From Candidatus Nomurabacteria bacterium (GTDB taxonomy: Bacteria; Patescibacteriota; Minisyncoccia; Phycocordibacterales; UBA9973): a DNA stretch of 64,000 bases. Position numbers and translations under genes: made by a program. Numbering within the stretch: the first letter of the stretch is position 1; each line of letters starts with the position of its first letter. The notes beneath the pieces are model-generated. The model was not told where the DNA came from. It was given only the letters and a program-made list of their open reading frames with translations, and ran no database searches. Below, piece by piece: positions 47,481 through 49,451 of this stretch. Location: assembly GCA_020845875.1 (NCBI GenBank), contig JADLEY010000009.1, positions 3,907 through 67,906 on the forward strand. The letters are read 5' to 3'.

Positions 47481-48137
47481 ATGACTCCGCGCGAGCTGGA
47501 ACAAAGAAAAGAAATTTGGAAAAAGATCGCGCCGGTATTGCTCAAACAGTATCGCCGCGATGAGACGTTTTTGACGTGGGCAAATCCGTGGCAGCTGACG
47601 GTCGCGGTCACGCTCTCGGCACAGACGACGGATGATATGGTGAACAAGGTCACGCCGGCACTTTTTAAGAAATATCCGACTCCCGCGAAGCTCGCCGCTG
47701 CGCCAGTGGGTGATATTGAGAAACTGATAAGCAGGCTCGGATTTTTCCGCAGTAAAGCGAAGTATATAAAGGCAGCCGCGAAAATCGTCGCTGACGATTT
47801 TCGCGGCGTGATTCCGCACGATCCAATCGAGCTCCAAAAACTTCAGGGCATCGGTCGTAAAGGTGCAGTGGCGGTGATTTCAAACGCGTATCCCAAGTAT
47901 GCCAACATCGGCATTCCAGTGGACACGCATGTTATCCGATTCGCGAAGCGTTTCGGTCTCTCTAGACAAACTGATCCGTCAAAAATAGAACAAGACCTTC
48001 TACAAATCATTCCTAAAAAAGACTGGAAACGCGCCGGCTACGCCATCAAAGAATACGGTCGCAAAGAGGGCAAAGCTCGCGCCTACAATCCCGCCCTTGA
48101 TCCGCTCATGCAGGCAATAAAAAATTGTGTTAGATAA
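47481..48137 (+). CDS. nth: Endonuclease III-like HhH-GPD glycosylase (no Fe-S cysteines)
   Basis: LTVAVTLSAQTTD…HhH LQKLQGIGRKGAVAV…VDTHVIR. The stop codon sits inside a hairpin that terminates the convergent gene. Confidence 0.7.
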   Translation: MTPRELEQRKEIWKKIAPVLLKQYRRDETFLTWANPWQLTVAVTLSAQTTDDMVNKVTPALFKKYPTPAKLAAAPVGDIEKLISRLGFFRSKAKYIKAAAKIVADDFRGVIPHDPIELQKLQGIGRKGAVAVISNAYPKYANIGIPVDTHVIRFAKRFGLSRQTDPSKIEQDLLQIIPKKDWKRAGYAIKEYGRKEGKARAYNPALDPLMQAIKNCVR

Positions 48138-48147
48138 AATCTAACAC
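48117..48147 (-). terminator. Hairpin tgtgttagat-aaa-atctaacaca with a T-tract on the minus strand; terminator for the 78-aa minus-strand gene. It overlaps the nth stop.
   Basis: Perfect 10-bp inverted repeat preceded on the + strand by aaaaaa. Confidence 0.55.
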
Positions 48148-48160
48148 AATCAGTTAATTG

Positions 48161-48397
48161 CTACTTTCTCAAAAAGGAAGGCACATCTGGCACATCTTGT
48201 AATATTTTATATGCTTCTTCAAAAATAGTTTGATGTTCTTTGTCAAAGTTTCTTGAAGCAGTATATTGCTCCCGGATTTGTTCCCATGTTAGATCTTCGT
48301 AAACCTTGTATGAGCGGTATGCGTACCCAGAGTCAATATATTTTTTCTTTGAGATGCTATCAGCAATCTTCATTGCTATTGCGTATGCATTTTCCAT
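48161..48397 (-). CDS. Hypothetical 78-aa soluble protein, first small-gene module of the CRISPR island
   Basis: ORF bracketed by its own promoter (copy 1 of TTGACGAATCATA-N17-TATCAT) and terminator. No recognisable family. Confidence 0.4.
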   Translation of the reverse strand: MENAYAIAMKIADSISKKKYIDSGYAYRSYKVYEDLTWEQIREQYTASRNFDKEHQTIFEEAYKILQDVPDVPSFLRK

Positions 48398-48415
48398 AAT
48401 TTTAAGTCTTGCGTT

Positions 48416-48447
48416 ATGATAGCATGTATCTTATGATTCGTCAAGAG
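48416..48447 (-). promoter_or_regulatory. Promoter-core copy 1 (minus strand TTGACG-N17-TATCAT); the + strand carries the uvrC-start remnant ATGATTCGTCAAGAGAAATAA
   Basis: + strand 48431-48447 ttatgattcgtcaagag; −10 reverse complement at 48416-48421; −35 reverse complement at 48439-48444. Confidence 0.55.
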
Positions 48448-48451
48448 AAAT

Positions 48452-48485
48452 AAAAACTGCGTTAGGTCTTGCCTAACGCAGTTTT
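48452..48485 (-). terminator. Bidirectional hairpin terminator H1 (ctgcgttagg-tcttg-cctaacgcag) flanked by A5/T4
   Basis: 10-bp perfect stem. On the minus strand it is followed by ttttatttctc, and it ends the 49-aa TM-protein gene. Confidence 0.65.
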
Positions 48486-48555
48486 GCTTTGCTCTTTCTG
48501 TATCTGTATTTTTCAGCCAAATCGTATAAAGATTGGCACAACAACATAACAAGCG

Positions 48556-48705
48556 TCACGAGCAGCCAAAAATATATCCTGATAGGATTGCTAACAGCGG
48601 ATTTACAGAGATAGCCGCGATAGCACAAATGACGCAAGTGATTGGCCAAATACAGAATAGGTAACCCGCAAAGACGAATACTTTTACAAAGTTATACCAT
48701 TTCAT
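48556..48705 (-). CDS. Hypothetical 49-aa Cys-rich two-TM micro-protein (not in the ORF track because it is under 60 aa)
   Basis: Hand-translated MKWYNFVKVFVFAGYLFCIWPITCVICAIAAISVNPLLAILSGYIFGCS. Bracketed by promoter copy 2 and terminator H1. Confidence 0.35.
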   Translation of the reverse strand: MKWYNFVKVFVFAGYLFCIWPITCVICAIAAISVNPLLAILSGYIFGCS

Positions 48706-48722
48706 TTTTTAAGTTTTGTGAT

Positions 48723-48754
48723 ACTATACTGCCTATATTATGATTCGTCAAGAT
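48723..48754 (-). promoter_or_regulatory. Promoter-core copy 2 (minus strand TTGACG-N17-TATAGT)
   Basis: + strand 48738-48754 ttatgattcgtcaagat; −10 reverse complement 48723-48728. Confidence 0.5.
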
Positions 48755-48800
48755 TTAAAAAAACTCTTACCTTACGTCCTCTTGCAAATCAAAAACCTGA

Positions 48801-48836
48801 TATACTCAAACTATGCTATCGCGCAAAATGAGTATA
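48801..48836. repeat. 36-bp palindrome copy U (TATACTCA-aactatGCTATCGCgcaaaa-TGAGTATA) overlapping the start codon(s) of the wHTH::Cas2-like gene
   Basis: Perfect 8-bp outer inverted arms. A second direct copy is at 49338-49373. Confidence 0.6.
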
Positions 48837-49334
48837 GAAGAGAAAATTATGAGATTTCTGTACGACAGAAAGTATTTGCACGCTCTCGCATTTAGTACCC
48901 TGCTACAAGAACCTTCTTTTTCTTCATACAAACCACAATCCATACGAAACGCGCTCACTAAGCTTTCGAAACAAGAACTAGTGCGCACCGGTGCCGACGG
49001 TATCATGCTCCACACAAAGGGGAGAGCGTATATAGAACAGAGGATGGCGCGGCTTCAACTATTTGATTCGCCGTTTACCAAGAATGCCCCGAAAAATCTG
49101 CTCGTGCTTTTTGATATCCCCGAAGATTGCAAGGCTGAGCGGGAGTGGTTTCGCCGGCAGCTCCGCGAGTTTGGCTACGACATGGTGCAAAAGAGTGTAT
49201 GGCTCGGACCGTCGCCATTGCCGAAAGAATTTGTGGAATATGTAAAAACTATCGGATTGCGCGATTGCATCAAAACATTTCGCCTCGCCCGCAATCAGCA
49301 GAGTGAACTGAAAAACAGCAAGATGAAAAAATAA
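48813..49334 (+). CDS. Winged-helix (PaaX/MarR-like) N-terminal domain fused to a Cas2/VapD-like ferredoxin-fold C-terminal domain; candidate adaptation/regulatory component
   Basis: C-terminal 'NLLVLFDIPEDCKAEREWFRRQLREFGYDMVQKSVWLGP…IKTFRL' has the Cas2 beta1(…YDV/FDI…)-alpha1-beta2(…RVQ.SVF…) pattern. The N-terminal ~90 aa look like a wHTH. The gene lies in the cas neighbourhood and is flanked by palindromes. Confidence 0.5.
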   Translation: MLSRKMSIEEKIMRFLYDRKYLHALAFSTLLQEPSFSSYKPQSIRNALTKLSKQELVRTGADGIMLHTKGRAYIEQRMARLQLFDSPFTKNAPKNLLVLFDIPEDCKAEREWFRRQLREFGYDMVQKSVWLGPSPLPKEFVEYVKTIGLRDCIKTFRLARNQQSELKNSKMKK

Positions 49335-49337
49335 CTA

Positions 49338-49373
49338 TATACTCATTCTGTGCTATCGCACAATTTGAGTATA
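49338..49373. repeat. 36-bp palindrome copy D (TATACTCA-ttctGTGCTATCGCACaatt-TGAGTATA) immediately after the wHTH::Cas2-like stop
   Basis: Same outer arms and GCTATCGC core as copy U. Confidence 0.6.
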
Positions 49374-49406
49374 TGCATGTTTCTGGTGTGTGAGAATTAT
49401 TGAGTA

Positions 49407-49439
49407 ATAAAAAACTGCGCTGGGTTGTGCCTAGTGCAG
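49407..49439 (-). terminator. Hairpin terminator H2 (degenerate copy of H1) ending the 77-aa minus-strand gene
   Basis: ctgcgctggg-ttgtg-cctagtgcag with aaaaaa/tttttt flanks; shares the aaaactgcg…cgcagt frame with H1. Confidence 0.5.
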
Positions 49440-49451
49440 TAGTAGTTTCAT

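Follow-up and report, generated by a model that had tools for sequence, protein, structure and literature searches.

In a 64,000-nucleotide stretch of a Candidatus Nomurabacteria genome (assembly GCA_020845875.1, contig JADLEY010000009.1, positions 3,907 to 67,906, forward strand; hereafter the window), a small gene encoding a PaaX-like protein is bracketed by two copies of a 36-bp palindrome, one over its start (site U) and one just past its stop codon (site D). It is proposed that the palindromes are the cognate operator pair of this protein, an autoregulator without an effector domain that has a few other conserved targets in related genomes; on the comparative sequence evidence assembled here, this proposal is probably, though far from certainly, correct. 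From the sites and their conservation, the covariation of their arms, the overlap of site U with the promoter and the PaaX-like fold of the protein, we infer the binding, the geometry of the dimer, the repression and the role of site D.

Two palindromes bracket a gene for a PaaX-like protein

Both palindromes are read directly from the sequence, site U as TATACTCAAACTATGCTATCGCGCAAAATGAGTATA and site D as TATACTCATTCTGTGCTATCGCACAATTTGAGTATA (Table 1). They have the layout TATACTCA-N6-GCTATCGC-N6-TGAGTATA in common, with perfect 8-bp outer inverted arms and an identical GCTATCGC centre in equal orientation, which makes them direct repeats. A pattern search allowing up to three mismatches returns sites U and D only in the whole window, against 0.00 expected from 100 shuffles. 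An earlier sequence-only reading had already described the two copies, which the direct reading and the search confirm; it was also right in placing the first over both candidate start codons, as ATG 48813 and ATG 48828 lie within site U, and the second just past the stop, as site D begins at the fourth base after TAA 49332-49334. Folded as single-stranded DNA, site D is the better palindrome of the two (-9.6 kcal/mol, z -5.3) and site U the weaker (-4.7 kcal/mol, z -2.0). The 760-nt region shows no differences across four independent public assemblies (L001-L004; such handles denote the loci and contigs compared). Tandem Repeats Finder reports nothing in the window, and Rfam, searched at the gathering threshold and also at E<=1 over 48650-49500, gives no relevant RNA family.

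The protein is 173 aa long from ATG 48813 and 168 aa from ATG 48828, the start used in public gene calls. Pfam assigns residues 97-164 to PF20803 (PaaX_M; 48.8 bits, cut-off 24, E 7.5e-13), the Cas2-like dimerisation domain that is central in PaaX and is precomputed on 120 of 120 listed homologs. The NCBIfam PaaX model TIGR02277 scores 23.7 bits, far under its equivalog cut-off of 264.55, and aligns collinearly, protein residues 41-166 corresponding to profile positions 34-159; PaaX_C, the C-terminal effector domain, has no Pfam match, and the protein stops after the middle domain. The AlphaFold model (predicted local distance difference test score, pLDDT, 89) consists of helix-helix-helix-wing followed by beta-alpha-beta-beta-alpha-beta, and its best full-length PDB matches in Foldseek are PaaX of E. 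coli W (8a39; 166 columns, prob 0.99) and the PaaX-like structures 3l09 and 3kfw; the global template-modelling scores to the PaaX structures are low (0.32-0.36). Taken by halves, residues 1-75 match MarR-type winged helices and the other half matches Cas2, and a PDB sequence search with the family profile yields weak Cas2 and MarR matches only, PaaX surfacing by fold alone.

The matches to Cas2 models are confined to residues 96-131 or 96-146 and to the first 35-50 profile positions. Pfam CRISPR_Cas2 scores 23.6 against a cut-off of 23.8, the NCBIfam Cas2 model TIGR01573 scores 26.9 against 24.5, and PADLOC gives weak Cas2 matches only. PHROGs gives no match, and no HUH (Y1), DDE, tyrosine recombinase or serine recombinase domain is found in it with Pfam, NCBIfam, PADLOC or PHROGs. 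The protein is best read as a PaaX-type regulator scaffold, a "mini-PaaX" of winged helix and Cas2-fold dimerisation domain, and not as a working Cas2 of a CRISPR (clustered regularly interspaced short palindromic repeats) system. The earlier description of the gene as a fusion of a winged helix-turn-helix (wHTH) and a Cas2-like part holds for the two domains, but needs changing in its label: the scaffold is of the PaaX type, and cas genes lie near only 2 of ~85 loci. The idea that the protein is a replacement for LexA was also considered and dropped; the reference list of PMC8565304 includes a study of the LexA network in Patescibacteria.

The flanking pair is conserved throughout the family

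The family belongs to Patescibacteria (Paceibacteria, Nomurabacteria). More than 200 homologs are returned in one search, 481 stretches are confirmed in GTDB genomes, and 1612 representative clusters exist at 50% identity, nearly all of 150-200 aa; several sources label the members "CRISPR-associated endonuclease Cas2". We compared ~85 loci whose proteins are 40-82% identical to that of the window, including 80 GTDB loci at 40-68%. The flanking palindrome pair is a universal trait of the family: nearly all of these loci have a 36-40-bp palindrome at the promoter and another just after the stop codon. In L008 (82% identical protein) both sites are almost unchanged, and L005 has the upstream site TATAATCAATAAATGCTATCGCATAAATCGATTATA together with a post-stop site that carries the same new arms and an inverted centre; sites with altered arms also occur in about 70 further loci. 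The 8-mer GCTATCGC or its complement flanks the gene on both sides in 37 of the 80 GTDB loci, usually occurring nowhere else in 8 kb, and the remaining loci have the same architecture with other centres (GCTATAGC, GCGATCGC, GCCATGGC, GCGGCCGC, ACCATGGT and GCACCTGC). In independent metagenome contigs, all complete TACTCA-type genes (29/29) have a site at each end.

The family consensus consists of a lineage-specific outer arm of 7-10 nt, a poorly paired stretch, the core ACTCT-GCnnnnGC-AGAGT, and the mirror image of the first two. The relative orientation of the two cores varies between clades, with (+,+), (+,-), (-,+) and (-,-) all represented, and is fixed within clades. Genomes carry several old, divergent paralogs, and the palindrome type differs from one paralog to the next. 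In L074 (3350-3925) and L076 (606-1181), the family gene is immediately preceded by a second, more PaaX-like paralog (192 aa, ...WDGQWRVVLLDLP), which has a palindrome of its own (TTTTGACAAGTATTTAGCGACCGCAAAAGACTTGTAAAAT) 46 nt before its start.

DNA repair genes recur as neighbours of the family genes: a helicase-nuclease (UvrD/PDDEXK) nine times (L027, L028, L032, L054, L061, L063-L065, L087), recJ seven times (L025, L035, L044, L048, L055, L083, L085), recR four times (L011, L016, L019, L023) and nth/uvrC seven times. The enrichment is weak, because these neighbours form only four to five independent synteny groups. The window gene likewise lies near repair genes (nth, uvrC, uvrA).

Arms covary with each other and with the winged helix

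A strict filter retained 120 sites in 73 loci. At positions 12-17 nt from the dyad, 90-99% of the pairs are Watson-Crick complementary, with three to four pair types at each position; at distance 14, for instance, CG occurs 41 times, TA 38, AT 36 and GC 3. Arm complementarity is 7.29 out of 8, against 3.23 (maximum 3.77) when the right halves are shuffled among sites, and the two sites of one locus have 18.3 of 24 outer bases in common, against 9.2 between loci. The arm type goes with the predicted recognition-helix motif of the protein: TACTTA with NS-LSGTLSY, TGACACA with KRS-LRTTIDRL, TGTTAnA with SS-LRGTMSYL, TACTCA with KKQS-INNT and TAATCA with HPQS-IRNA. Mean conservation is 37% in the winged helix and 70% in the Cas2-like domain; when the latter is controlled for, arm identity and winged-helix identity have a partial correlation of 0.22-0.27, whereas the reverse comparison gives 0.07. 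These correlations are modest and confounded by shared ancestry, but point in the direction expected for cognate sites.

The centres are self-complementary in 45 of the 120 sites (CATG, TATA, GATC, GGCC), and most of the others are one change off (TATC/GATA). Sense-strand mismatches show no wobble bias overall (G:T 101 versus A:C 80) or at site U (41 versus 38), and a weak one at site D (44 versus 27). The symmetric centres, the lack of an overall wobble bias and an upstream site that is predicted to be untranscribed in most loci together favour duplex DNA read by a symmetric dimer.

The upstream site overlaps the promoter

The left arm of site U coincides with a predicted extended -10 element, TGaTATACT (Table 1). 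ATG 48813 lies 6 nt past this element, suggesting a leaderless or near-leaderless transcript. The TGnTATA(A/C)T arrangement of the window recurs in L005, L008, L009 and L013-L023, and in most other clades TGnTATAAT directly follows the upstream site, with the ATG 6-9 nt further on; in most loci the upstream site thus precedes the -10 element and is therefore not part of the gene's own transcript. A bound dimer would cover either the -35/spacer region or the -10/start region, depending on the clade. The conserved "MLSRK" extension in many gene calls is the site centre translated. We also considered the arms as mere -10 boxes and dropped the idea; in most clades they are unlike TATAAT. At the other end of the gene, site D starts -33 to +77 nt from the stop codon, mostly 0 to +25.

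Solo sites elsewhere

A scan of Joint Genome Institute (JGI) metagenomes with TACTCA-N6-GCTATCGC-N6-TGAGTA matched at least 120 loci; among the matches listed are 133 sites, 54 of them bordering a family gene and the other 79 unlinked to any. The copy number is low as judged from the two sites in the 64-kb window, the 10-15-kb anchored loci, which hold the anchoring site or pair only, and ~560 kb of GTDB flanks, which hold about three solo sites with local arms. The unlinked sites look like extra targets rather than a miniature inverted-repeat transposable element (MITE), because they are low-copy and stand at conserved positions. For the sequence-only reading, in which a dimeric wHTH protein binds its own start region and a second site and many unlinked copies would point to a MITE-like repeat, the outcome is mixed: comparison lends support to the binding model and unlinked sites do exist, so that the flanking pair is not the whole story, but MITE-like spread is not seen. 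Solo sites that occur on one contig with a family gene have arms matching those of the local gene's sites (L081:2133, L024:5299). In L081, three near-identical sites bracket both a gene for a Cys-rich protein and the family gene, and in L024 the second site lies past a convergent 257-aa gene.

Among the unlinked sites listed, 26 lie in frame within miaA (LRKxL-YSKSAIALFEY-LKKxDP; for example L089, L091, L093, L096 and L102). MiaA orthologs are of equal length in this region with or without the palindrome, which argues against insertion of a mobile element; the variants include YSKSAIALFEY, VTKSAIALFVT and VPLSAIALFGT, as well as the non-palindromic EKKSxxELFKI. The arms of the miaA site differ between lineages and stay complementary, being TATACTCAAA...TTTGAGTAT in L213, TTGTTACAAA...TTTGTAACA in L209 (10400-10430) and GGTGCCAC...TTGGTACC in L211. 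Third-codon entropy is 0.41 inside the site, at positions not fixed by the search pattern, versus 1.16 outside. The miaA palindrome is thus maintained at the DNA level, which fits a bound site, and its arm types are also seen around family genes. The miaA gene lies ~3 kb from parB.

About 20 of the unlinked sites listed stand 1-17 nt upstream of a gene for a Cys-rich protein of ~570 aa (M..ICQNCKKDF...) that matches nothing in Pfam, PADLOC or PHROGs. In L021, a search for such a site in front of the homolog found none; therefore this gene is not a universal target. It occurs in L101, L105, L113, L149, L183, L207, L208 and others, and in L081 (2161-3900), where two sites bracket it and it points away from the divergent family gene; some contigs carry two tandem copies with a site in between. 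Six further unlinked sites listed, of the TACTCA type, lie in frame (YSNSAIARHEY) inside a reverse transcriptase (RVT_1 in Pfam; GLPLGNLTSQ), whose motif we take to be that of a diversity-generating retroelement (L131, L132, L161, L184, L192, L203; motif GLPLGNLTSQLLVNIYMNEFD). In L131, a second palindrome-like stretch (SIYAIADI, centre GCTATAGC) comes just before the reverse transcriptase site. Two of the unlinked sites listed lie between ruvB and ruvC (L092/L133). Three palindrome types occur within a 10-kb stretch of L209 with no family gene in view, in line with several paralogs per genome; one lies within miaA, another (centre GCATATGC) 28 nt past the stop codon of miaA, and the third, with arms TACTTTA, beside alr, and further palindrome coordinates on this contig are 10893-10933 and 19187-19227.

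Proposed mechanism and alternative explanations

We propose that the mini-PaaX acts as a homodimer in which the Cas2-fold dimerisation core would hold the two winged-helix domains apart, each of them reading one 8-bp outer arm (the arm centres are ~29 bp apart), while the core would cover the conserved centre, which is GCTATCGC in the window and ACAAACTCT-GCnnnnGC-AGAGTTTGT family-wide. A dimer on site U would shut off its own promoter, because the site covers the extended -10 element, the predicted transcription start and the start codon, and negative autoregulation would result. Site D would be a second operator of the same specificity, most likely making repression stronger by way of a protein bridge that links it to site U, or else blocking RNA polymerase at the gene end as a roadblock; both roles are guesses. 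Proteins of the same type would have a few further target sites in related genomes.

Several observations weigh against this proposal. The inner part of site U is only a weak palindrome (12/19), and the correlations between arms and protein are modest and partly confounded by shared ancestry. The operator reading offers no explanation for the retention of a second site after the stop codon: site D is not placed in any constant way relative to the following gene, whose strand varies, or to that gene's promoter, and the centre-to-centre distance of the two sites ranges over 498-713 bp, with no helical phasing when this was looked for. Sites inside coding sequences, as in miaA and the reverse transcriptase, are unusual for operators. 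In one metagenome-assembled genome (MAG) the miaA arms (GGTGCCA/TGGTACC, L211) do not match the arms of the paralog (TGTTATAA, L064), the only paralog seen from that MAG. Finally, the family has an invariant Asp (FDIPE) at the position that is catalytic in Cas2, and the protein may therefore act as a nuclease.

Some of these features would suit a different kind of system, in which the proteins and their co-evolving palindromes form a self-contained protein-plus-site unit that is not an ordinary repressor and acts on the DNA itself, each paralog marking its own gene on both sides and a handful of fixed positions (miaA, gene ends, repair genes), for example for cleavage or protection, as boundaries of recombination or repair, or as a barrier to replication or transcription. 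The post-stop site, the intragenic sites, the kept asymmetry of GCTATCGC, the repair neighbours and the invariant Asp leave limited room for such a non-regulatory DNA transaction, and we regard it as a lesser possibility; if true, the family would be a Cas2-derived counterpart of systems of the Tus/Ter type or of repetitive extragenic palindromes (REP) with their associated tyrosine transposases (RAYT). A related proposal, that the protein binds the palindromes not to regulate genes but as landmarks, at gene borders and within genes, for chromosome organisation, DNA repair or recombination and that the flanking pair keeps protein and sites co-inherited, would account for the single fixed codon position of the miaA sites, for arms that change there despite the amino-acid cost, for the reduced synonymous-position variation and for sites at gene 3' ends, and it draws on the repair-gene neighbours, the solo site between ruvB and ruvC and the proximity of miaA to parB. 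It is nevertheless unlikely, given that the upstream site is tightly and conservedly tied to the promoter, that the solo sites of the Cys-rich gene also lie just upstream of a start, that the closest characterised relatives are repressors and that the repair enrichment is weak.

That the gene and its palindromes are a selfish or mobile unit, with solo sites as dispersed REP/RAYT-like derivatives and the Cas2-fold domain as nuclease, is suggested by palindromes flanking the gene in every family member, by per-genome paralogs with their own types, by solo copies that are in part in frame within genes, and by the invariant Asp, but the tests for mobility make it quite improbable. Across 47 loci, no offset gave an exact 5-mer direct repeat, and the flanks were as similar to each other as in the control, so there is no sign of target-site duplication; synteny is stable within clades (nth/uvrC, the upstream helicase-nuclease, convergent recJ, recR, glutamate dehydrogenase, trigger factor); no recent duplicates of the family gene were seen, the paralogs within a genome all being old and divergent; four samples contain no rearranged forms of the locus, which is identical in all of them; IMG/VR viral contigs contain neither gene nor site; and no transposase or recombinase domain was found at the locus, nor an HUH or DDE domain in the protein. 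With its low copy number, solo sites at orthologous positions and an unchanged MiaA length adding to this, the mobile cassette that the sequence-only reading had offered as its alternative gains no support. Site D folds well, would be transcribed and has the weak wobble bias, all of which would agree with palindromes that act as RNA hairpins, the upstream one masking the start codon and the downstream one stabilising or terminating the transcript; this is very unlikely, however, since the upstream site lies outside its own transcript in most loci (in the window, only half of site U would be RNA, because the predicted start is inside it), wobble bias is absent at site U and overall, the self-complementary centres are not required of a loop, no U-tract follows site D, a separate G+C-rich hairpin does, and Rfam has no match. 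Dimer-type palindromes with a short asymmetric core around a 0.5-kb gene, as hix brackets hin, and a relative core orientation that differs among clades could indicate hix- or lox-like crossover sites for inverting or excising the gene; we hold this to be highly improbable, as neither the protein nor its surroundings contain a recombinase domain (a host Xer protein might still act on the sites), orientation is fixed within clades, many centres are symmetric, and the window sites are direct repeats and yet the locus is intact and identical in four samples. Barely credible, lastly, is that the adjacent type V-F system has its Cas2 in this protein, with palindromes that serve CRISPR biology such as cas regulation or adaptation: in the window and in L009 the gene adjoins an array, cas1 and a gene of the Cas12f-like kind, and the protein passes the NCBIfam Cas2 cut-off, but cas1 is absent from the surrounding 4 kb in 83 of ~85 loci, among them those of the close relatives L005, L010 and L017, the local Cas1 lacks its N-terminal third, the palindrome is dissimilar to the CRISPR repeat, and no further site lies near the cas genes.

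Comparison with known systems

Our literature search retrieved nothing on this family or arrangement, and only the PaaX operator sequence was obtained. That operator is TGATTC(N27)GAATCA, and PaaX competes there with RNA polymerase, so repressing the promoter of its own gene (PMC9493321). Like PaaX, the family protein begins with a winged helix and continues into a Cas2-fold dimerisation domain, and its sites consist of two short inverted arms two to three helical turns apart that overlap the promoter. Unlike the PaaX operator, the window sites have 8-bp arms and a 20-bp spacer that is itself conserved, 36 bp in total. The protein, about 165-173 aa versus ~300, is without the C-terminal ligand-binding (phenylacetyl-CoA) domain and therefore lacks an evident pocket for an effector. 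No paa genes accompany the family gene, the PaaX model score is far under the equivalog level, and the family-wide second site after the stop codon and the several paralogs of differing specificity per genome are further differences. With Cas2 it has in common the ferredoxin-like fold, a beta1 motif with Asp (LVLFDIPE), weak hidden Markov model matches, the annotation and, in the window, a cas1 neighbour; it differs in being fused to a winged helix, in lying almost never beside cas genes, and in that the local Cas1 has no N-terminal domain.

REP/RAYT systems likewise have a gene flanked on both sides by a palindrome that is also found elsewhere, with a palindrome type per protein lineage, but the family has no HUH/Y1 fold, few copies are seen here versus tens to hundreds per genome, and the solo sites stand at conserved orthologous positions with no sign of recent spread. 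Phage lambda CI with OL/OR resembles the arrangement in that a repressor gene lies between operators of one specificity and a bridge strengthens autoregulation (here a guess); unlike in lambda, one long palindrome stands on either side, a loop would span ~0.5 kb, and the protein shows no evident means of oligomerising beyond the dimer. Hin with hixL/hixR also has a ~0.5-kb gene bracketed by two dimer-type imperfect palindromes with a short central core, but the family protein lacks a recombinase domain, nothing points to inversion, and the window sites are direct repeats.

Patescibacteria (Candidate Phyla Radiation, CPR) have tiny genomes and almost no characterised regulators. Under the operator reading, more than 1,600 sequence clusters gain a predicted function and a lineage-specific predicted binding site that is readable from the gene flanks, and dozens of natural, apparently orthogonal protein-operator pairs are predicted. 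The family would then illustrate clearly how the specificity of a DNA-binding domain and that of its sites can shift together, even within the miaA coding sequence. The conserved post-stop site and the intragenic sites lie outside textbook operator logic and are directly testable. A systematic annotation error is also corrected, as the "Cas2" label on the family means that counts of CRISPR adaptation genes in CPR genomes are inflated.

Surroundings of the gene in the window

A low-G+C island (48138-52355), flanked by nth and uvrC and situated downstream of uvrA, contains the gene, and no recombinase domain was found in the island. The same island contains a compact type V-F-like CRISPR-Cas locus (Table 1). 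Its Cas12f-like protein has 442 aa (PADLOC Cas12_x1, 7e-30; the NCBIfam TnpB family is under cut-off), and its Cas1 (51173-51904, 243 aa) covers profile positions 116-327 of 327, the N-terminal third being absent. The N-terminal domain of Cas1 is the contact to Cas2 in Cas1-Cas2 structures. The array has three full 39-nt repeats (GTACCCAACCACCCAATCTCTTTAATGGAGGTTTTGGGT) and one degenerate repeat toward cas1. L009 has the same Cas12f-cas1 gene pair, with a Cas12f-like protein 69% identical, and cas1 lies within 4 kb of the gene only there and in the window. In L005 (69% identical protein) the order is uvrA-nth-gene-uvrC without cas genes, L010 and L017 have uvrC downstream and lack cas genes, and L008, a short contig, shows none. 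The CRISPR genes are not part of the unit, because the closest relatives have the gene without them; the "Cas2" label and the CRISPR neighbourhood are incidental.

Table 1. Coordinates of the palindromes, the gene and nearby features in the window
Feature	Position	Strand	Remarks
Promoter repeat, copy 2	48707..48765	none	contains ATGATTCGTCAAGA; ~40 nt upstream of site U
Extended -10 element TGaTATACT (predicted)	48798..48806	+	equals left arm of site U; read from sequence
Site U, upstream palindrome	48801..48836	none	spans -10 element, predicted transcription start and both candidate ATGs; conserved in L008
Gene for winged helix + Cas2-fold (PaaX_M) protein	48813..49334	+	Pfam, NCBIfam, AlphaFold, fold search
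Site D, downstream palindrome	49338..49373	none	arms and centre as in site U; after stop codon
G+C-rich hairpin	49410..49440	none	between gene and convergent 77-aa open reading frame; terminator-like
Compact type V-F-like CRISPR-Cas locus	49796-52158		Cas12f-like gene, cas1, array

Four exact copies of ATGATTCGTCAAGA occur at 48433-48446, 48740-48753, 49719-49732 and 52356-52369, each preceded by ~45 nt of similar sequence, and the fourth is the true uvrC start (MIRQDL...). The minus strand of every copy has a -35 TTGACG with a -10 element 16-17 nt on, and each copy is therefore a putative leftward promoter. At first they had been taken for att-like duplications of the uvrC start; this gave way to the promoter view, in which the -35 overlaps the first uvrC codons. 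These promoters face small minus-strand open reading frames (78, 49 and 77 aa), and copy 4 faces the CRISPR array. Rightward transcription from the promoter repeat copy 2 would need to cross site U. The nth-uvrC island resembles three stacked modules, each closed by a ATGATTCGTCAAGA promoter copy, and L005 and L008 have the same duplication with a different module order. A family of G+C-rich hairpins (AAAAACTGCGYTRGG...CCTARYGCAGT) occurs at 48120-48150, at 48452-48482 and after site D (Table 1), positioned after nth and between convergent genes in a terminator-like manner; with such a hairpin following it, site D is not needed as a terminator. A terminator scan calls the 48453-48485 hairpin on both strands.

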